Assembly: GCA_046563655.1 (NCBI GenBank)
Contig: CM102290.1
Span: forward strand, 4,836,001-4,900,000
Direction: 5' to 3'
DNA: 64,000 nt
Origin: Yuukianura sp. NJ FZ-2021
Lineage: Eukaryota
The notes beneath the pieces were generated by a model. It was not told the origin of the DNA. It did not search any database and was given only the letters and a program-made list of their open reading frames with translations. Shown one piece after another: positions 5,627 through 17,474 of this stretch; the first letter of the stretch is position 1; each line of letters begins with the position of its first letter. A program made the position numbers and the translations under genes.

Positions 5627-8581
5627 CTAACGAGTTTCGTGTAATCCATAGTCTTCCCATATTGTAGTGTCCAACTCGCTGTCAGCATGCTCAGCCTATA
5701 AGATGGAGGAAAACGTTTTTAAAATATGAATTTGAGACTAAATAGCATGGATTCAGGATAGTCACTAGGTTTAGGTAAATACGTTCGTAATCTAAAATAG
5801 AATGTTGACAATTAGTTACATCCTCGTCCTCTTCTTCGTCCAAGTCCATCTCTTCTCCAACAGTGACTTCAAATGGAGCATCCGTCCCACGTGAACTACA
5901 AGGGTCCAGACGATCTAATCCTTGGCGAGCGTCTTTATTTGACGGATCCAGTCTGAAACAAATTAAACACAACACCAAAATCAGGATTTAGAAACTACAC
6001 GAAATCAGTAGAAATAATTTACCTCAGTGCGATTGCATACTGATCAGCTGCACTTTCTTCTTGTCCGTTTTTACACAACATAGCGGCTAGTCTTACATGT
6101 AACTTGCTTGGAGAAACTCGAAGGTCAATGTAGTTTTTGAGCATTTGTATACCCTCGTTGAACTTTCCCTCCTGATGGGTTGAATTGAAGTTATTTAACG
6201 ATAGTAAGTGAAGAAATAACGCTTCGATTGCGCGGCGATATATAATAATAAAAATGAAAAGTTATCATTGGTTCGACTTACAGATTCGTAGATGTCAGCG
6301 TAGGTCATAATAGCTGGCAAAAACGTTGGATCAGCTTCCAGAGCCTTCTCCAGATACGTTTTTGCCTTTGTTACTGTCAAAGGATCTTTCTTCAACGCAA
6401 TAGCACAGAGCTGTAACACATTATAACTTTTAATTAGTTTACGATTTTATACAATAAGTACTACCTATAAGTTCAGAATTATACTACATAGGTAATATGT
6501 TTTCATTGATTGAACAAAATATGATAATAAAGTATGTCAGTTTCTTACGTTGAATACACGCGGAGTATGTCCGACTGCCTTCAATGCACTGATTGCTACC
6601 GTCATGGCTTCTCTTATCCGTGAGGTAGCTAGGTAGCAGTCAACGATACCACGATAAGCTTCATATCGTTCCGGATTCCGAGACATAACCTCCCGAAAAC
6701 ACATAACAGCTTCCTGATATTTCTTCATTTTGAGGTAAATATGGCCTTGACAAATTATTCCTTCCGGGTTAGTCATCCCCAGAAAAGTGGCACCCTATAA
6801 CACATTAAGTTAGAGCATTACCTTGGAGTAACTTATCAAATTGTTCGTTGGAAATCTTTGGATTCAATTGATTCTACACTACTACTCATAGCAGCCTTAC
6901 TGAAAAAAAGGATTAAGTTTTTCTATCGGATGATCATCGAAAAAGTGGACGTTTTGTAAAAATAACCCCAAATGAATCCCCAAATTGTTACAGTACAACA
7001 AAAATACAAAATAACACATAAACTTCCAGTGTCGATTGGGGCAATTTTTGCAAAACCGACCACTTTTCGCTGATCACCCTGTAGAAAAACTTGATCTTTT
7101 TTAAGTAAGGTTGCTACGAGTAGTAAACTTACTCGGACCGCGAAGACCTGAGCACGATTTAATCGGCCGAGAGACATTGTGTGATACGCAGATGCGATCC
7201 ACGGTTCACTTTTTGATTCTCGAAGGTTATAGTCATTCAGTCTTAGTTGTAATTTGTAGAGTTCTTGCTGCATTTCTTCTTGCCAAAGAGCGAACGCGTA
7301 GAAATCCATACCTTTCATATTGAGTGGCTCGAAGTGTAGGGCCTATGAATCAAACCAGTATGTCACAGTAATACGCCTGTTTTTGTCAGTTTAAACTCTG
7401 CCGAAAAAGTACTCACCCATTGAAACGCGTTAGTTGCTGCAACATAGTCCCCGTAGTTAATATTTGCCATGCCGAGACTGTGGAGTAGAGAAACACATCC
7501 TGTTAACCTCTTCTGTTGTCTGATTTCATTGAAAATCTTGATTCCGGCGAGATGGTCTTTGGCGGCGACAGCCGCTGTGCCACGGATCCAACTGTTATAC
7601 CTAAAATAAGATTCATTGTCAATAGAAAAGAATCATGGATAACTTTTATTAAAAACAGTCTAACAACCAACCGCACCGAAGCCTTACCAGTTCAAGTTTG
7701 TATTCGACTTTGCAGTTTTGTCACGCACTAGAGACTGTACGTCATCTTCGTTACATCCCAGCAAAATTAACTGTTCTACTGCATCAAGTGCCATTGGACA
7801 CACCTAATGGGAAGAATAAAGATTTGAAACAAAATCAATTCCAAATTTCAATAACAAGTTGGCACTTTTAAGTATACCTTTAGAACTTCTTTGTAAGATG
7901 TAATCGCAGCTCGTTCCATACCAGTCTTCTTATACAAGTGACCCATGGCCATGTTGATTTGAACTGTGCGTTGTTTTGCAGGAATCGTTTCTAACCACTT
8001 CAGAGCATCAGCTGTTTTCTTATTTTGTGACATGCATAGATATACCTTATATTTCAAATCTGTAAATCAAAGATCAAGGAGTTAAAAGGTAACATTTAAC
8101 AAATTATAAACAAACCTACCTGTGGAACTTCCGCAATTATCAATTAGTTTGCTCTTCATAGTAGGATGTAGCTTGAAAAGTGGTTTGTATAATTGTAGAC
8201 ATCGACGATAAAAGGCTTCCGCTCGATGGAAATCCAACAGTCTATAAGCAGATTCTCCACACATAAAATACACATGGCAGTGTTGGTGCTCAGTAAGAAG
8301 TTCCGGTTGCTGCTGAGCCAACCCCAGGGCCCAGCTACTCTGTTAATTAAAAATTAGTTGACATATTTATTCAACCTGGAAAAGATCTGTAAGTTACTGT
8401 CACCATTCTTAACATCATCAAAACGTCGCAGCGTGCTTACAAAAGTCAGAAGGTTTGAGTATAACTCATTGTCGAACAAAGCTTTTAATTCGTCGTAGTA
8501 GAAGTTGCTTCTTCGAATTTTTTGGTCCGATTGACCAGAAGAACCACCGGGGCCAGCAGCCGGTGAGTTTACAGTTGACAT
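5627..8581 (-). CDS. ANAPC7: Anaphase-promoting complex subunit 7 (TPR protein), 11 coding exons, 592 aa
   Basis: Exons (minus) 8581-8441, 8339-8120, 8059-7878, 7803-7688, 7600-7417, 7342-7133, 6794-6549, 6410-6282, 6171-6023, 5952-5820, 5695-5627. All introns GT-AG with consistent phases, total 1779 nt. Translation has APC7 motifs: IPAKQRTVQINMAMGHLYKKTGMERAAITSYKEVLKVCPMALDA, MKGMDFYA, EPW, YRGIVDCYLATSRIREA, KAKTYLEKAL, ALRLDPSN and an acidic tail. Confidence 0.95.
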
Positions 8582-8585
8582 TGTT

Positions 8586-8666
8586 CTATGTATAAAAGAA
8601 GCACAAACATGAAATTGCTAATTCACCATTCCTTTTAATTGAACTGAAGTTGTGCAACTCACATAC
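8586..8666 (-). other. ANAPC7: 5'-UTR intron of ANAPC7 (upstream non-coding exon begins at 8667)
   Basis: GTATGT donor at 8666; pyrimidine tract plus TAG acceptor ending at 8586, 4 nt before the ATG; 81 nt, typical intron size here. Confidence 0.65.
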
Positions 8667-8887
8667 CTTATTCTTGGTCAGTTCCCACAGATCGAGTAAC
8701 GACTCGTAACTTGAGCGCTCCAACACTGGGTACAATCTTCAGTTTAAAATTGATTAATACGTACATCAACAATTAGTGGAGCACTAACCCTAGGTAGTAT
8801 AACATGACACTGTTTTGGTTGTTTACTTTTTATTTTGGTTAATTAAATTCAGTTTTCAGTTTCAGGTTTATCCAAGTTGCACACACA

Positions 8888-8995
8888 GGGATCCCCTAAA
8901 AGGCGGAACGCGGAAAAGGCGGAAAACCGCGCACTATACGAGGAAAAGGCGGATTACCGCGTACTATACGAGAAAAAACCCGGAGACTCGCGCAC
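8888..8995 (+). repeat. Left TIR with ~29-30-bp internal repeats (core CGCGCACTATACGAGGAAA)
   Basis: Two full units plus a partial one; reverse complement of 12072-12198. Confidence 0.9.
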
Positions 8996-9505
8996 CAACC
9001 TAACCGCCACCAGCCACCACCGAGGCTTCAGAACAAAACTGCAACTCAGCCTTTGACCTCAACAGATGGTCACAGAGTCGTGTGTGATATGCCAAAATGA
9101 TCTCACTGACCTCAACAACTTTTGTAAGGGTCATTTTTGATGTTGTCAGGAGACGCCGGGTCAAATTTTCTGGACTTAGAGAAATTTTCATCTGCACCAC
9201 GTTTGATAGAATCCAACCAGACGATTTAGTTCTGCTCTCGGCTGCTTGCTTTTCCTTCTTCTGTTCTAAATGGCTACAAAGTCAGCTTCTGCAGCAATTC
9301 CCTTCCGAGCAATTTGCAGCTTGCAATATCCCAAAAACTTCGCGATGCGCGATAATCTTAGCCGTTGTTGATTAGACTAGGTTAATCAGTTTCTTCTGTT
9401 TTGAATTGACTTAGTTATTTTCATTCTCGTTTCGGCAGGATTGTTGGTCGAACATATTAATTGGGATAACAGTTGGTGTGCTCCGTGAAGAGACCTCGCT
9501 TCAAC

Positions 9506-11798
9506 ATGACTACTCCCATTTTAAAACTTCCGAAAAGAGGCACGTAAGGACGTTACTAAACCGAATTCATGCGGCAAATTGATTTTTTTTGAAGTGATTT
9601 CGAAGAATTGTAAGAGGGATAAAAATGCCGACTTTGTGTAAAAAGCTGGAACTTTCCCTATGAGTTATCACTTACTTTTTTTAATTAGGACGGACTGCGA
9701 CACAAGGGCAAGATGTTCAATTTGTCAGGGGTTCTCCGACATTCCGGAATCGTAAGTTTTAAGATTTTTTTAACACATGAAACTAGTTCACTCCACAATA
9801 AAGACAAAGTCGCGAAGCTTTTTAATGATTGCAATAATTTTTGGGATTTAGGGGAGAAGAAAAAAATGAGGAACGTAGACCAGGGATATATCCGAAGACT
9901 TTAAAATTTGGTCATAATGAAACAGGTGTCATTCCAGTTCATAATCAAGATCATCAAGATGTAGGTGCCAACGAACACCTTGCGCTTGGTGAGGCACGAA
10001 TTTATTCATGTGTAATAAAACCGTTTACTCTGTGTAAGATAATGTCTAATGACATTTGGCAAAAAGTAGAATTACTAAATAATTTTATTTATTTATTTTA
10101 CAATTAATTTATATTTAATAATTTGTACATTTTAGTAGATGGGACACCTACGCTTCCCCTCCTGAGCGGTATAACACTTCGAATGAATCGACGACACCAC
10201 TTAACACAGAAGGCAACGGCGGTGAAAATTTTGTACATGTCCAGAATGGGACCTCTCAGCAACTCAGCATCTCAGCAATTCATCGAAAATTGGCACATAC
10301 AAACATCCTCATGTGTGGACTCGGAGGACTCGGAGTAGAACTCGCAAAAAACGTTTGTCTGGGTAAGCATCTGGCACTTCAAAAAGTTTTTGCAAAACGT
10401 CGTTCCATGGATTCGGATTTAGATTTGAATTTGGTTGTTTCAGGCGGTATGAAATCCGTGACTCTGCAAGATACAGCTAAAATATCCTGTATTGATCTGA
10501 GCAGCCAATTCTACTTGAACGAGGAGCACATTGGGCAGAATCGTGCTCTGGCTAGTCGAGATCAGTTGGCCCAGTTGAATCCGTATCTCAACGTGAAAGT
10601 CATCACAGAACCACTTACGACGGAACTCATCAAGAACTTTCATATCGTCGTGGTGACGGATCGCGTTGGGACTGAAGCGACACTGTGTGAGTTGTCTTGC
10701 TTTTGTCACGAGAAGAACATCATTTCATTTCATTTCATTTATTCTCCTGTTTCTGGCAGGCTTTTCAGAAGAAGTAATAGTGATAGTTTTTTTGAAGTGT
10801 AATTAATATTAGTTAATTAAAGATCGCTTTCATCTTGCTGAAACTCGCGGAGTGTTTTCTCGCTTGTTCAGTGACTTTGGAGAGGGGTTTGTGGTCAATG
10901 ACTCCAACGGTTAACCACCAATTACAGCATTGGTTGCCAGTGTGACGCAAGACACGAATGGGCTCGTCACTTAGCTCGCCATGGACTGGAAGACGGGGAC
11001 TTTGTGACGTTCACTGAAGTGGTCGGCATGGAGGAGTTGAACGGATGTGAACCAATGGAGGTCACTTTCACTATCGGAGACACTTCAGGTATCCACGCAA
11101 CTGGAGTTGAATTATACACACTGATACTATATATATGTAATTATGTACCATTGGTGTCTTTGTGAATGCAGGGTTCAAGGCTTATGAAAGTGCTGGGACG
11201 GTGGTGCAAGTGAAGAAACCGGTTGTCGTGGATTTCCAGTCTTTTGAAGCGTGTCTTCGTTAACCTGAAGTTGTTTACAACGATTTTGCCAACCTGGATC
11301 AGTCGAATCAGCTTCACTGTGGATTCCGTGCCCTGGATTGGTTGGTGGCTGAGACTGGGCGACTCCCTAAGCCTTGGAACGAGGAGGATTCAGCAGTGGT
11401 TGTGGAGATGGCGAAGGACATCAGTGCCACTCTCAAAAATCCCCTGGATGGGGTGGATGAGAACTTGCTGAAACTCTTCTCCTTTGTGAGTGCAGAGAAT
11501 ATTTGCCCAATGAATGCTTTCGTCGGATGTGTGGCTGCTCAGGAAGTGATGAAAGCCTGTACTGCAAACTTCTACCCCATCAAGCAATTTAAATTTTTGG
11601 AGGCTGTCGCCCGTCTCCCACCACCACCTCCACCAGCCCATCAGGTAAATTTAAATCAAGATCATAACCAATCATTTTAAAAATTCACACTTTTCAAAAT
11701 AGTGTTCAAGTGCTTTTAATTTTTTTGTTTGATTTTGTAGGTTGAACCAACTACTGGTCAAATCAATCTGCCGGATTGCAATGCAGATGAGGATTTGG
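9506..11798 (+). pseudogene. UBA1: Decayed chimeric gene: unrelated N-terminal exons, then the N-terminal half of ubiquitin-activating enzyme E1 (IAD, FCCH, four-helix bundle), then a short unrelated C-terminal exon
   Basis: Exons 9439-9543 (ATG 9506), 9689-9751, 9852-9988, 10136-10362, 10444-11088, 11172-11644, 11741-11798 with GT-AG introns. UBA1 motifs: [126 protein letters not shown]. Lesions: TAA at 10912 and 11261; frameshifts near 10835, 10972 and within 10136-10290; an apparent ~6-codon deletion near 11063; a 104-bp insertion. Confidence 0.9.
10722..10825 (-). mobile_element. 104-bp insertion, probably the 5'-truncated 3' tail of a non-LTR retroelement (LINE/SINE)
   Basis: Interrupts the UBA1-like frame between KNI and AFI. 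ATC is duplicated at 10719-10721 and 10823-10825. The minus strand ends AATAAATG(AAATG)3, a poly(A)-signal-plus-microsatellite tail. Confidence 0.65.
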
Positions 11799-12071
11799 GT
11801 AAGCCGTCACTTTTTCTTCTCTAAATATGTAAACAAGGTAGGGCAGTGCTCAAAGGTTGAGCACAGGTCTTCTGGAGGAAGTTGACAATAATTGATGGCA
11901 CCTAAACCAACCTGCTTCAAAACTGGGGAAGAACTGACCTTGTCCCTTGTGTGTTTGCATGATGTCAGTTGCGAAATTTTTAACTTTAATTTAGGTAGTT
12001 TAATTAACTAAATTCTAAAAGATCCTAAATTCTAGCATAGTTTAAAATGTTTTTATTTGAATAACGGCCAA

Positions 12072-12198
12072 TAATCCGCGTTTTCCTCGTATAGAGCGCG
12101 TGTTTCCGCGTTTCCTCGTATAGTGCGCGGGTTTCCCCGTTTCCTCGTAAAGTGCGCGGTTTTCCGCCTTTTCCGCGTTCCGCCTTTTAGGGGATCCC
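12072..12198 (-). repeat. Right TIR with three ~29-bp internal repeats
   Basis: Three TTTCCTCGTA(T/A)AG(T/A)GCGCG units followed by the terminal ...CCGCCTTTTAGGGGATCCC. Confidence 0.9.
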
Positions 12199-13868
12199 GC
12201 ACACACAGACTCACGAATATGTAACTCCGTCACTTATGGGCAAAACCTGAAAAACCTTCGAGAAACGAAAAAATTTAGTAATTCCACGGCAGGCTTTTCA
12301 CTAAACATTTTCACCTACTTTTTACATTTCGATGATCATATTTTAACTGTTTTTAATATCAAGCGTTTGCGTTAGTGCTTGATTTCCTTGCTTTTTCATA
12401 AAACTCCATTCCTCGCTATAACGTGCCAAAACACTCAAACAAGAGTTAAAAGCAAGATACTGTAACTATAATAATGAGCCAGAATTAATGGTAAGGTTCG
12501 AGGCAGTTGTTAATACAAATCGACTGCTGTAGGCTAATCGGGGCCTATTTCATTCTTATCAAATATATTACTTTAACAAATTAATAAAAAAATTTGCCCG
12601 TTATTGAGAAGGGAAAAGGTGAGAAACGGTAGTGCCAGAGTGCAACCTGATTATATTAAGTTCATTTTTTTCCGAAGAATTTTTGCCTTCACTTTTCCCG
12701 CTACGGATAAGATGCCAAACTCAAGGTTTTTCGTTTAGAAAGTGTTACGTAAAGTTGAAATCTTATTACGATTAATCAAGCGATTTAAATTAAAACTTAA
12801 AGACTACTTCGTGTCCCACAGAAATAAGAGTGAAAATTAGACCCAAAAATATGATCCTTAGCTGACTATAAACAATACCCCAAGAACATACAAAAGTTAC
12901 GACCACGACCACGCTCGTTGCGTGGCTAGGTGCAATTGAGAGTAACAAACAATAAACTAGAAATGTCGATTTAGTGTTAATTTGAATTATGCAATTAAAA
13001 CGTTTTGTAATTTTTACAAAAGTAATCCAAAATTATCCATACTTTAAAATTTAATCCTAATTAAAATTACCAATTAAATATGCTTTTAGAACCCTTGTCG
13101 CCTCTTATTTAGTATTTTTTTTCTTTCATGTGAAATTTCCACGTCAACTACCATCAGACAACCAAGTACATTGCGTTGATGTCATGGTTGACTAGTTTTA
13201 TTTTTGGTGTGAGAGAAGAGCCGAAGTTAATTATAAATAAGTTTAATTATGTTTTTACATCATGAATTGGATGAGTTTTTGTGAATTACTAATTGAATTG
13301 AGGTAGTCTGAGTTTGTAGGTGGCGGTATGGTAGTTGTGTGTAGTCAGAGGCTATATAGCGGAGGCTTTAAGGGTGTTCGTTGTTCTAATTGAGGGAGAG
13401 TGAGGCATCTCTTCTCCAAGATCACTATATGACAACACAAGAAAGAAGAATAGTCAATAGACACTCTCTGGGTCAACCACTTCTGCACCACAGTTTTACT
13501 TAGAAATTAATTAACACTTACCCACACCAATTATTCTAGTTTCACAAACACCAATTACACCAGGGGAGGCCGCGGACACCCTCACTTTCAAGCTGATTTC
13601 TTCAACAATACGTCTCAAGCCACCACTCACACTGACCTCCGACCTTTCTCAGTACTCAACCCATACTTAATGCTCATCCACGACAAGGTCAGGGTCTTTC
13701 GAGACCAATGGGTACGTCTCTACACAACAACTGCAACTGGATAACGGACCTGGTCAATTCGTCCCCAACCAAAGCTACTTTACCCGGTGATTCCTTTTAC
13801 TTTCATCTTCCCGTTGTTGGCCCTGTTCAAACTTCTTCCACATTCATCATCATCATGAAGATGTGGAT

Positions 13869-16800
13869 ATGGAGGTGTACAGCAGCAACGTAAGAATAAT
13901 TTTTAAAAAGACTATTTTTTTTGGGTAAATAAGAATATGAAAAGTCACTGGATGTGAAGTCAAATCTCGCCAGTGAGTGAAATGAAATGTTACTCGACCT
14001 CCTTTTCTTAAAGAACTTTCTCCAATTCCCTACCACACAAGTTCTCTAACTTGTCTCAACTGACTTTATTATTTTTGTTTCAGAATCCATTTAATATGCG
14101 ACAACACAATTTGAATACCCTTCACCTACAAGGAACAACACCCGTTACTAAGCTGAAGACAGGGTTAACCTTTCCAACGGTTTCAATGTCTTTCTCAACT
14201 ACCACTACGGCAAAGTCTCTCGATCTCCTTCGTCAAAACATTCAACGCTCAGTTAATCAAGATATCAGAAATGTTATTTCTAAATATATGGAGGTGAGTG
14301 AAAGCTGGACATTGAATATGGCTATTTACGCAAATTACTAAATTACCTATGGTTTTGAACTTCACAACTAACATAATCAGTTTTGCTTAATTCCACAGCT
14401 ATTCTTCAAACCCGGTATAGAGAATATTAGAAGTAATTCTGGTCCTGACTCTGTCACTGATGATCATATTCACACCATGTGCCGTCAAATCCTCGAAGAT
14501 GCCAAGAAGATGTACCCTGGCCGCTCTTCTACTCCGTCCCCTTCGTCTATGTCCTGCAGTACTGGAAGTGCAATAGATCACGAGTCATCGGACTATTCAC
14601 AAAGTCACAGCCAAATTAGCAATGATCAAGTCAAGGTCCCTCATTCGGTACGACTGTCTCTGCATTTCCCTATCCAGTATAATTCAACACTGCAATAATG
14701 TGGAATTGGTTGTATTCTTTAGAGCCCAACGTTTGGAATTAAACGTGAATCGGATGATACCGACTCTGAAGCGAGCTCAATGTCGAATGCAAGCAAGAAG
14801 ATGAAGAAAGCAGCCAATAATAAAGGCAGCAAGGCTAACGATAGCTCTGTAGGAAACAATAATGCAATTAACAATGGGTCAGCGACAAAACCAAAGAAAC
14901 CGTCCGGTCCATCGCGGAAGCATGTGGCCAACTGGGAACTGGAAAAGCTAATTCCAGACACTCTGTTTATCATGGGAGCCAAGTAAGTATTTTCAACTTC
15001 AGTTATGCAAAACTATCTGATTGAGGAATGAATGGTCAGCTAATAACATTTTCTGATTTCGAAAGTAAAGGCGATTGTGAAGAATCAATCATAACTTGTA
15101 TGTATTCCTAGGGCCAACAAAGCACTTGGATTTGCTCAAACACGCGGTCGTCTTTACGTTAAGCATCCAGGCCTGTTTAAGTACGCTAGCGATTCTGATG
15201 ACAAAGAATGGCTGTCAAAGAACAAGCTAATGCCTGCCACTGGAGGACGAGCCTACATAATGTTACTGGAAGATATTGAAAAATTGGCCCAAGACAACAA
15301 GTGAGTGAACTTTATTCACCTGCCGATTCACGAACAAAGTTTTCTGTGTTTTTTATAGATACCTTGCACTGGGAACATATAACTTTCTAACTACTAACAA
15401 AGTAGAACCGGTTTTATTAGGCTTTTGAATAATTTATTGTTATTGTTTTCAGAACAATTTTTTTTTCCTTCCTGGACAATTGAGTTAATTCTATTTCTTT
15501 TACTTACAGATTGAACGTGACAATTAATTACGATGACATAAAGGGATTTCGTGTTCCCGACTTTATTTTAGAAAAGATGAAGTCGTACATTTCAAAATGG
15601 AAGAAGTTATATGCTGAGGAAGCCCAAAAGCCCGCTATTCCTGCCAACAGGAACCGAACGCAGAACTGTATGACTGTGAACCTTGGTAGTAGCACTGTCC
15701 CTGCTAATTCAGCACAGCCAAACGCAAATGGAACTACGACCAATTTACCGTCGATCAATCCTCCACCACCACCATTACCTCTTCATTCGCCCATGCAGCC
15801 TTCTCAAAAACCTCATCCTCACGCCCATAACAATTCGCAGAATCTAAACAGTTACCACATCAGTGGGAATTCTATCGCGAACAACGTTATGTACGAACAG
15901 GAGTTAATGCCTCTTCCTCAACAAACTCATGACTTGGGTGAGATGCGAGAATTTCTTCAAATGGAGAAACCCCCACCGATGTACCCGGGTCACTCGGGTC
16001 AGGTTCACAACATGCAATCTAACCAGTCTTCTCATGGTGGCTATGTCCACTCTACGCATTTAGACCCCATTGAACAGGCAATAACAAAAGGAGATTGGAG
16101 TGGTGTTTCCGATAGGAGTCTCTTACAATACGCATTGCAGGTAACTTCATAGTGCAATTTAATTACACCAATCTGGAGCGACAACTATAAAGACTTGCGC
16201 CCGGTTGCAAGTCCTTCCCGCGTCGCAAATTCAAATTTTGCGACGTTTGGTACTCAAGAAACCGGGAGCAAGTAGGATCGCAAGAGGATAGCAACTCTTG
16301 CCATCCTCCTTCTCTTTCTCCATTGAAACCTTTCTCCTAGCAGGAGAATCCCTACCTATAAAGAGCTCCTCCTCTCAGTAGCATAGCAACTTCCGTGATA
16401 TCTTTGCGGCTAGTCGAGACTAGCCGCAAACTTGCTACTTGAATGGTTATTAAAGATTAGAATCTAAATATAAGCACTACTAAGTGAATTAACACATGTA
16501 ACAACAGCCTAACATTTTCTAAGCATATTTTAAGCATACCCTAATCATAATACCGTCACTTTATGAAGTTGTATTACTATTGCTAATGGAATTATGTGAT
16601 AGGCATATGAGTTGCTTTGAAAGATGGAAGTTAATCCTGTTCTGGGGTTCTTTACAAAAGAACCCTTTTAAATTACCCCGTTTTGGTTAAAGTTTTACAT
16701 TATAAGGCCTCAATAACCAATTCTACTTCATAATTGCCTTAAAGATCGAACAATACGTGATAACAACAATAAACGATGACAACTAATAGGTACATGTGTG

Positions 16801-17474
16801 TCTAAAAGTATTACGATAATTGTAATACTTGAAAAAAGACAATTGTCACATGCACTTATTGTTCCAAACATTGTGCCAGCACGTCTCATCCGTGTTGTCA
16901 ACTTCGAGATTTTGAACTTTTGTGAGGAGGAAGCCACTCAGCTCCTCCTCCGATCGCAGTTTGGAGAAAAGTCCGTCAACTTTGCCACCGAGAGAGAAAG
17001 AGTTTCATGAGTACCAAATTGTCAAAGTCGCAGACAAGTGTAGCAAGCAAATTTGCTCTAGCAGATTTGCAACCACTCTTTATAGTTATCGCTCCTGAGG
17101 TGTACTAAAGTGATGTATTTGTATTGTATAGAGTACGCGAAATCTAGGATCATGGGACCCCCAGGATTCGTTTGACTTGATTGATAGTGTTACGAACGGG
17201 AACATCTCGATTCCTGGAAGCATGGGAGAAATGGAAAAATGGGAGAGACTTTCTTCTGGAATAGCAGGTGAGTCAGATTTAAAAATGTGCCAAACTTTAT
17301 AACCTGTCTGCCTGTTTTTAAATTAACTGTTTCAATTTAGGCGAGATTTCTCCACTCCTGCAAATTTCACCTGACGCCGGATCACATCTAACTGCGCCGC
17401 CACTGGGACCAGTGAGTCCTAACTGTGAGCTAAGTGCAGTACTGGATCAGGCCTTTCACTACCCCGACACATGA
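13869..17474 (+). CDS. DNTTIP1: Deoxynucleotidyltransferase terminal-interacting protein 1 (MiDAC HDAC-complex subunit), 8 coding exons, ~609 aa
   Basis: Exons 13869-13889, 14084-14293, 14399-14647, 14723-14982, 15112-15300, 15510-16140, 17132-17267, 17341-17474, phases consistent. Motifs: NPFNM, SLDLLRQNIQRSVNQDI..KYM (dimerisation domain), FIMGAKANKALG..TRGRLYVKHPGLFKY..D..DKEWL..MPATGG.AY..LEDI, GFRVPDFILEKMK. The start codon, the exon-3 donor and the last two exons are less certain than the core. Confidence 0.92.
16166..17102. mobile_element. Non-autonomous DNA transposon/MITE (937 bp) in DNTTIP1 intron 6
   Basis: Imperfect TIRs CACCAATCTGGAGCGACAACTATAAAGA vs CACCTCAGGAGCGATAACTATAAAGA (reverse complement of the right end), both followed by GGTTGCAA. 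TA on both flanks (16164-16165, 17103-17104). Removing it shrinks the gene's longest intron (991 nt) to ~52 nt. Confidence 0.72.
16403..16430. repeat. Perfect 13-bp-arm palindrome TTTGCGGCTAGTC-GA-GACTAGCCGCAAA
   Basis: Read directly; lies inside the intronic element. Confidence 0.9.

Follow-up and report, generated by a model that had tools for sequence, protein, structure and literature searches.

How does a piece of a ubiquitin-activating enzyme gene come to lie between the ends of a transposon in a springtail genome? The question is raised by a locus in Yuukianura sp. NJ FZ-2021 (GenBank assembly GCA_046563655.1, contig CM102290.1), within a stretch of 64,000 nucleotides at positions 4,836,001 to 4,900,000 that we call the window and whose own coordinates are used throughout. 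An earlier note on this DNA, made from the letters alone, had proposed a Pack-MULE-like transposon in an animal, a Mutator-like element (MULE) ferrying half of the gene for the ubiquitin E1 enzyme UBA1, perhaps as an adopted cargo or accessory gene. Our analysis leads to a narrower answer, in which the locus is very probably a Pack-TIR, a type of non-autonomous cut-and-paste DNA transposon (named for its terminal inverted repeats, TIRs), with a captured fragment of UBA1.

A single transposon with a precise empty site

The unit runs from 8888 to 12198 (3311 bp) and is bounded by inverted ends and by a 9-bp target-site duplication, with one copy of GCACACACA on the left (8879–8887) and one on the right (12199–12207). 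Whether it is truly one mobile unit can be asked of public sequencing data. Five public runs contain the stretch, of which X1, X2, X4 and X5 come from one sample and X3 from another study under another organism label. Our contig evidence consists of assembled contigs of X1 to X4 aligned to positions 6500–14500 of the window at 85% likeness, and it refers to the best-matching alignments, here called the listed contigs, beyond which there were a further 1048 pieces, 182 loose ends where contigs break off and 187 differences. Because the alignments are trimmed at 85% likeness, all distances taken from them are approximate; summed contig depth is a hint only and not a copy number.

Two contigs, X2 record 11 (638 nt) and X4 record 24 (5215 nt), join 8878 straight to 12199, the longer of them spanning 6500–8878 and 12199–13231 contiguously. 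The joint skips 3320 letters and leaves 10 that could be assigned to either side, the tenth being a G that is both the first base of the element and the base after the duplication; we set the duplication at 9 bp because only this length leaves symmetric ends. What the empty site lacks is exactly 8888–12198 plus one 9-bp copy, and it retains one GCACACACA, the very allele that the earlier note had suggested looking for. The filled form is represented in the same sample by X1 record 4, which covers 9151–10460 (1310 nt) with 0 differences, and by X2 records 12 and 13. Since the filled form and a precise empty site are both present, the insertion is a true one and is polymorphic in that sample: 8888–12198 is a real, recently inserted transposon. 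Interior pieces with 0 differences also occur in X3, from the second study (records 19–21). Between the window and the flanking DNA of the empty haplotype (X4 record 24), 34 of 3412 letters are different, or 1.0%. The depth of the element interior in X1 is about half that of the flanks, and the sums over the termini and over 11831–11889 are much higher, though these depths are hints only.

The boundaries, inverted repeats and duplication described in the earlier note were reproduced by repeat search and end alignment. The repeat search pairs inverted arms of 62 nt (8888–8949 with 12137–12198) at 97% complementarity, and in an end-to-end alignment the termini are identical at 58 of 59 bp, with columns 1–48 the same, column 49 mismatched and columns 50–59 the same again; at lower identity the ends pair across 106 nt (88%). 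The 26-nt terminus occurs in exactly two copies in the window and in 0 copies in 100 shuffles. Each TIR, the left at 8888–8993 on the plus strand and the right at 12093–12198 on the minus strand, is composite, beginning with about 20 unique bases, of which the first three are GGG, and continuing into tandem units that measure 30 bp on the left (2.3 repeats, 8908–8977) and 29 bp on the right (3.3 repeats, 12075–12171). Apart from the mutual pairing of the two ends, blastn found no parts of the element elsewhere in the window. Folded as single-stranded DNA, the left end has a z-score of −0.34, indicating no special structure. The insertion target at 8879–8887 consists of a short (CA)4 tract. TA microsatellites are the target of one MULE family in the literature (PMC4486113); a single site cannot show a preference.

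A decayed fragment of UBA1 as cargo

What the transposon carries is a decayed fragment of a UBA1-type E1 gene (10284–11608, plus strand) that covers the ThiF/IAD, FCCH and 4HB regions. Open reading frames (ORFs) on the plus strand match the Pfam families ThiF (9.3e-15), E1_FCCH (1.2e-13) and E1_4HB (9.6e-17), and tblastn with a UBA1 query of 1037 amino acids (P0001) aligns residues ~55–410 to 10284–11608. The cargo thus amounts to about a third of UBA1 rather than the half first proposed; the second adenylation half, the catalytic-cysteine domains and the UFD are missing from the tblastn alignment, and Pfam matched only ThiF, FCCH and 4HB. Two introns interrupt the fragment, at 10366–10442 and 11090–11172. 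The initial description of the interior as an intron-containing UBA1 gene holds for the E1 motifs and the introns and fails for an intact gene, as there are three in-frame stops (TAA at 10912–10914, TAG at 10972–10974 and TAA at 11261–11263), frameshifts near 10836 and 10972, and deletions of 10 nt (at 10972) and 18 nt (at 11061). To judge from its sequence, the cargo is a dead pseudogene fragment.

A better-preserved version of UBA1 lies on a separate contig of 14,899 nt (X4 record 28), with shorter contigs in X1–X3. The long contig aligns to the window at 10295–10709 with 57 differences and at 10840–11586 with 69 differences and 49 gap letters; overall, cargo and contig differ at 126 of 1162 letters, approximately 10.8%, plus 50 gap letters in all. 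Among the alignments listed, the parent-like gene is free of four lesions of the cargo (at 10836, 10912, 10972 and 11061). Its contigs carry one additional letter at 10836 (X1 and X3) and, in all four runs, a G for T at 10912 that turns the stop into a sense codon, 10 additional letters at 10972 that restore the frame, and 18 additional letters at 11061. A variant genetic code that would accommodate the in-frame TAA and TAG was considered and rejected, because the parent-like contigs read G at 10912 and the stops are therefore best seen as decay. The cargo has, moreover, an insertion of its own of about 100 nt within 10710–10839, where the window has 130 letters and X4 record 28 has 27. An apparent third intron at 10707–10821 is this cargo-only insertion, since it is absent from the parent-like contig. 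The inserted sequence contains a (TCATT)4 microsatellite at 10720–10740 and mimics an intron with an AG boundary.

The long parent-like contig is collinear with the window through both introns of the fragment. Because the two copies share these introns, the copy was made at the DNA level and not by retroposition, as the earlier note had reasoned. In X3, the parent-like UBA1 contig has a depth of ~164, compared with ~4–8 for the flanks and the element interior; the reason could be that the sample is mixed, that a related species was sequenced at high depth, or that the material is RNA-like.

A non-autonomous member of a transposon family

The ORFs searched for transposase domains numbered 217, comprising 160 of at least 75 amino acids in the window (150 + 10) and 57 of 30–74 amino acids that overlap the element, and 0 of the 217 matched a transposase family in Pfam. 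This agrees with the lack of a recognizable transposase reported earlier and supports the interpretation of the element as non-autonomous. Its termini are also seen in other company. In a 294-nt contig of X4 (record 25), only 8888–8977 is matched, and the sequence on either side of it is different. Three contigs of X2 leave the window just after 8977, and two contigs of X3 have different flanks ahead of 8887. A further X2 contig passes from 8952 to 12024 through 39 intervening letters of its own, a short form resembling a miniature inverted-repeat transposable element (MITE). Among the listed contigs, those that share the termini diverge inside, and summed contig depths, as hints, are in line with this. 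When metagenome contigs were searched, the 23-nt terminus gave 0 matches; the 19-nt terminus gave a single match, which departs from the terminus as soon as the 19 letters end and was attributed to chance.

With regard to superfamily, we lean toward a MULE of the Phantom/Foldback-like kind. The target-site duplications of MULEs are 8–11 bp long (PMC6446971), and that of the present element is 9 bp. Composite ends of tandem repeats occur together with 9-bp duplications and MITE-like forms in Tm1, which belongs to the Phantom subclass (PMC3169594). Three G/C bases stand at the beginning of most MULE termini in arthropods, and the collembolan orders Poduromorpha and Symphypleona have tabulated MULEs (PMC13359780). 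It is the Tm1-like tandem ends, the G/C-rich start of the terminus and the MULE records in collembolan orders that favor this assignment.

Capture, movement and competing explanations

The history that we envisage would begin with an earlier member of the family that copied at least ~1.3 kb of a host UBA1 (E1) gene at the DNA level, introns included, through gap repair or template switching. The captured copy would then have decayed to a pseudogene fragment. Later, the transposase of an unseen autonomous relative, acting in trans, may have recognized the 29–30-bp tandem units in the ends, which are its presumed binding sites, excised the loaded element and inserted it with a 9-bp staggered cut of the target. 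The element would in this way have entered a spacer of ~2.2 kb between a TPR-repeat gene and DNTTIP1, where it is still polymorphic against the empty site. The relative timing of these steps can be estimated from the distances. Cargo and parent-like gene differ by 10.8% and the haplotype flanks by 1.0%, such that capture would be much older than the haplotype split if the 14.9-kb contig is the true source. With capture older than the split and insertion younger than it, the simplest reading is that the element arrived with its cargo aboard; the loaded element probably moved to this site, with capture preceding insertion.

Other accounts of the unit, its cargo and its superfamily can be given. 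The short MITE-like members of the family, as seen in the joint of 8952 to 12024, make it conceivable that two independent small elements flank a resident UBA1 pseudogene or segmental duplication and that there is no single mobile unit. However, the two ends are inverted relative to each other with one matching duplication around both, and the empty-site contigs are without exactly 8888–12198 and one 9-bp copy. This precise empty-site allele refutes two independent insertions, speaks for the one transposon that the earlier note had described, and leaves the two-element account with practically no credence. A different alternative looks to Arabidopsis, where the KAONASHI elements (KI-MULE) have a ULP1-like protease ORF that is common to a family. 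In the same manner, the UBA1-like sequence might be a working accessory or cargo gene under selection, and both the clear E1 domain matches and the position of the cargo, intact between good ends, are in keeping with this. A working gene is difficult to reconcile, however, with three in-frame stops, two frameshifts, two deletions and an insertion of ~100 nt, or with stops that the parent-like G at 10912 identifies as mutations. Furthermore, residues ~55–410 of 1037 are all that is present, without a catalytic-cysteine domain, and contigs with shared termini have other interiors; we consider selection on a working gene extremely improbable. Because the cargo is a pseudogene fragment with these lesions and no second copy of it exists among the listed contigs, the suggestion that a gene of the ubiquitin pathway was taken over by a transposon family, whether as cargo or as an accessory gene, is not supported. 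Finally, the same anatomy could belong to the Merlin (IS1016-like) superfamily instead of Mutator. The TIRs of Merlin elements are 24–462 bp long with GG conserved at the terminus, and the duplications measure 8 or 9 bp (PMC8101967); the GGG start and 9-bp duplication of the present element agree with that description. On the other hand, the combination of tandem-unit ends and 9-bp duplications has been described in Phantom/Foldback-like MULEs (PMC3169594), and collembolan orders are among those with recorded MULEs (PMC13359780). Both counterpoints leave room for Merlin, which we regard as a possible, if lesser, candidate, while a superfamily other than MULE or Merlin is a rather small chance.

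The order of capture and insertion could also be reversed, with a cargo-less member inserting first and then taking up the UBA1 fragment in situ by transposition-independent gap filling. Gap filling was inferred for most single-copy Pack-TIRs by Tan et al. (2021; PMC8277862), and there is no second cargo copy, which would be a possible donor site, among the listed contigs. Yet the other allele is a clean empty site, and the cargo differs from its parent-like gene by 10.8% and several indels, compared with 1.0% for the haplotype flanks, so in situ capture would need an age far above that of the polymorphism that contains it; we therefore find it unlikely. Certain considerations do weigh against our preferred history as a whole. 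The argument for an older capture presupposes that the fragment was indeed copied from the gene on the 14.9-kb contig, with comparable rates of change, and it uses approximate distances. The lack of a second cargo copy is compatible with cut-and-paste transposition without proving movement, and no autonomous copy with these ends was seen in the 64-kb window or among the listed contigs. There is no empty-site contig in X1, no listed X3 contig bridges either junction, and Merlin fits the same features of ends and duplication. A more far-reaching version of the Pack-TIR interpretation would have a Phantom/Foldback-like Pack-MULE that is still mobilized by a live springtail transposase and that moved a large multi-exon fragment long after its capture, with the UBA1 fragment, located in a bidirectional promoter region, giving rise to RNA that would influence the parental E1 gene or alter the expression of the two neighboring genes. 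This combination strikes us as highly unlikely.

Relation to known gene-capturing transposons

The element displays the features by which a Pack-TIR is recognized: TIRs and a duplication without a transposase, and a host-gene interior that has a parent-like copy elsewhere and keeps its introns. Tan et al. (2021) count 370 Pack-TIRs in 100 animal genomes, with a median capture of 224 bp; they report that the reference genomes yielded no Pack-MULE and that the insects among them had no Pack-TIR (PMC8277862). They also describe Ssk-FB4 of Drosophila, which is polymorphic and is called a Pack-MULE because FB4 makes 9–10-bp duplications (PMC8277862). With animal Pack-TIRs and a Pack-MULE already published, the earlier note, to which Pack-MULEs were mainly a plant phenomenon, had overstated the novelty of the locus (PMC8277862). 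Like the animal Pack-TIRs and Ssk-FB4, the present element is a polymorphic, non-autonomous TIR element that contains duplicated host sequence with introns, and FB4 is comparable in its long ends as well as in its 9–10-bp duplications (PMC8277862). The capture of at least 1.3 kb is nevertheless far above the median of 224 bp for animal Pack-TIRs (PMC8277862). Ssk-FB4 is a multicopy element that has an entire small gene on board and has been argued to be functional (PMC8277862), whereas here the captured piece is a defunct third of a large gene, and the listed contigs show no second copy of this piece.

Plant Pack-MULEs (Jiang et al. 2004, as cited in PMC8277862 and PMC6446971) are similar in combining TIRs and a 9-bp duplication with a fragment copied at the DNA level and no transposase, and their cargo is mostly non-coding and decayed, as here. 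The present element differs from them in its animal host, in its ends of ~110 nt with tandem units and in being a candidate rather than an established MULE. Tm1 of root-knot nematodes provides a likeness within animals, with composite tandem ends, 9-bp duplications and both short and longer members (PMC3169594). This likeness is one of description rather than of compared sequences, and the units of Tm1 are 13–15 bp long compared with 29–30 bp here (PMC3169594). Tm1 also has a transposase-encoding member (PMC3169594), whereas none was found for the present element. Merlin, which is widespread in animals, shares the terminal GG and the 8–9-bp duplication (PMC8101967), but no IS1595-type transposase is linked to the present ends, and the Merlin literature consulted here offered no example of an element that had captured part of a gene. 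The resemblance to KI-MULE is that of a MULE-type element, as we tentatively class ours, with coding sequence from a ubiquitin-like pathway (PMC8277862); in place of a protease ORF found family-wide, however, the present element has a broken piece of an E1 gene, and the listed contigs show no second copy of this piece.

A search of one literature collection found no publication that names a ubiquitin-activating enzyme and a Pack-MULE together. The capture of gene fragments by TIR transposons is already described in animals, and the present case is distinguished only by its host, by a capture that is large and spans several exons, and by the availability of both alleles in public data.

Genomic setting and other sequences within the element

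The element occupies the spacer between two divergently oriented genes. On the left is a TPR-repeat gene (6022–8584, minus strand), recognized by a TPR_19 match (7.3e-08) in the ORF at 6540–6794 and by weaker TPR matches at 6022–6446 and 8085–8342. Its likely ATG is near 8584, ~295 bp from the left end of the element, which places the insertion in the upstream region of this gene. On the right is DNTTIP1 (14096–17471, plus strand), which has at least four coding blocks and an ATG ~1.9 kb from the right end of the element; tblastn with P0004 aligns residues 1–301 at 50% identity (E 7e-96). The best matches of DNTTIP1 are proteins of Orchesella dallaii and Folsomia candida, at ~50% identity over the first ~300 residues, and this closeness to springtail proteins bears out the animal host that had been assumed from the sequence. 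By this gene alone, the host is placed among the arthropods, probably as a collembolan.

Between the left TIR and the cargo lies an interior without a recognized homologue (8994–10283), for which Pfam gave no match. An ORF of 89 amino acids within it (9838–10104) had 0 matches among 1.84 billion representatives, and 9151–10460 was seen solely as the element's own contigs. Contigs from all four runs end at both edges of ~9067–9219 (loose ends at 9050–9114 and 9150–9219). Because contigs break off at both edges, this segment would be a repeat that is present elsewhere, and it looks like a fragment of another repeat that is nested in the element or was captured by it. Between the cargo and the right TIR, a 59-bp piece at 11831–11889 looks like a short part of an unrelated high-copy repeat, with many contigs breaking off on both sides. 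Loose ends before 11830/11831 number 21, 13 and 11 contigs in X1, X2 and X4, respectively, and those behind 11889 number 12, 13, 2 and 9 contigs in X1, X2, X3 and X4. The flanks before 11831 are diverse, whereas the continuation past 11889 is fairly consistent and unlike the window; in all likelihood the piece is the terminal part of a different repeat family of high copy number.

Several further signals were considered and dismissed. A joint of 6993 to 11833, with 26 letters on its shorter side, was taken for a short repeat match, since blastn of the element found no copy there. A weak tblastn match of 9283–9333 to UBA1 residues 705–721 (E 0.8–0.9) was attributed to chance. Across the whole window, Rfam at the gathering threshold gave 0 matches and a tRNA scan gave 0 genes. 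A scan of 8800–12300 for bacterial-type promoters and terminators returned 6 promoter-like sites where 6.1 are expected, under a model that is unsuited to a eukaryote.

Significance

The locus provides a clean, well-bounded hexapod example of a DNA transposon that carries a fragment of a host gene. Because its filled and empty alleles are both in public data, it could serve as a population marker. More broadly, it offers a test case for the question of whether the gene fragments captured in animals are dispersed through transposition or form at the sites where they are found.

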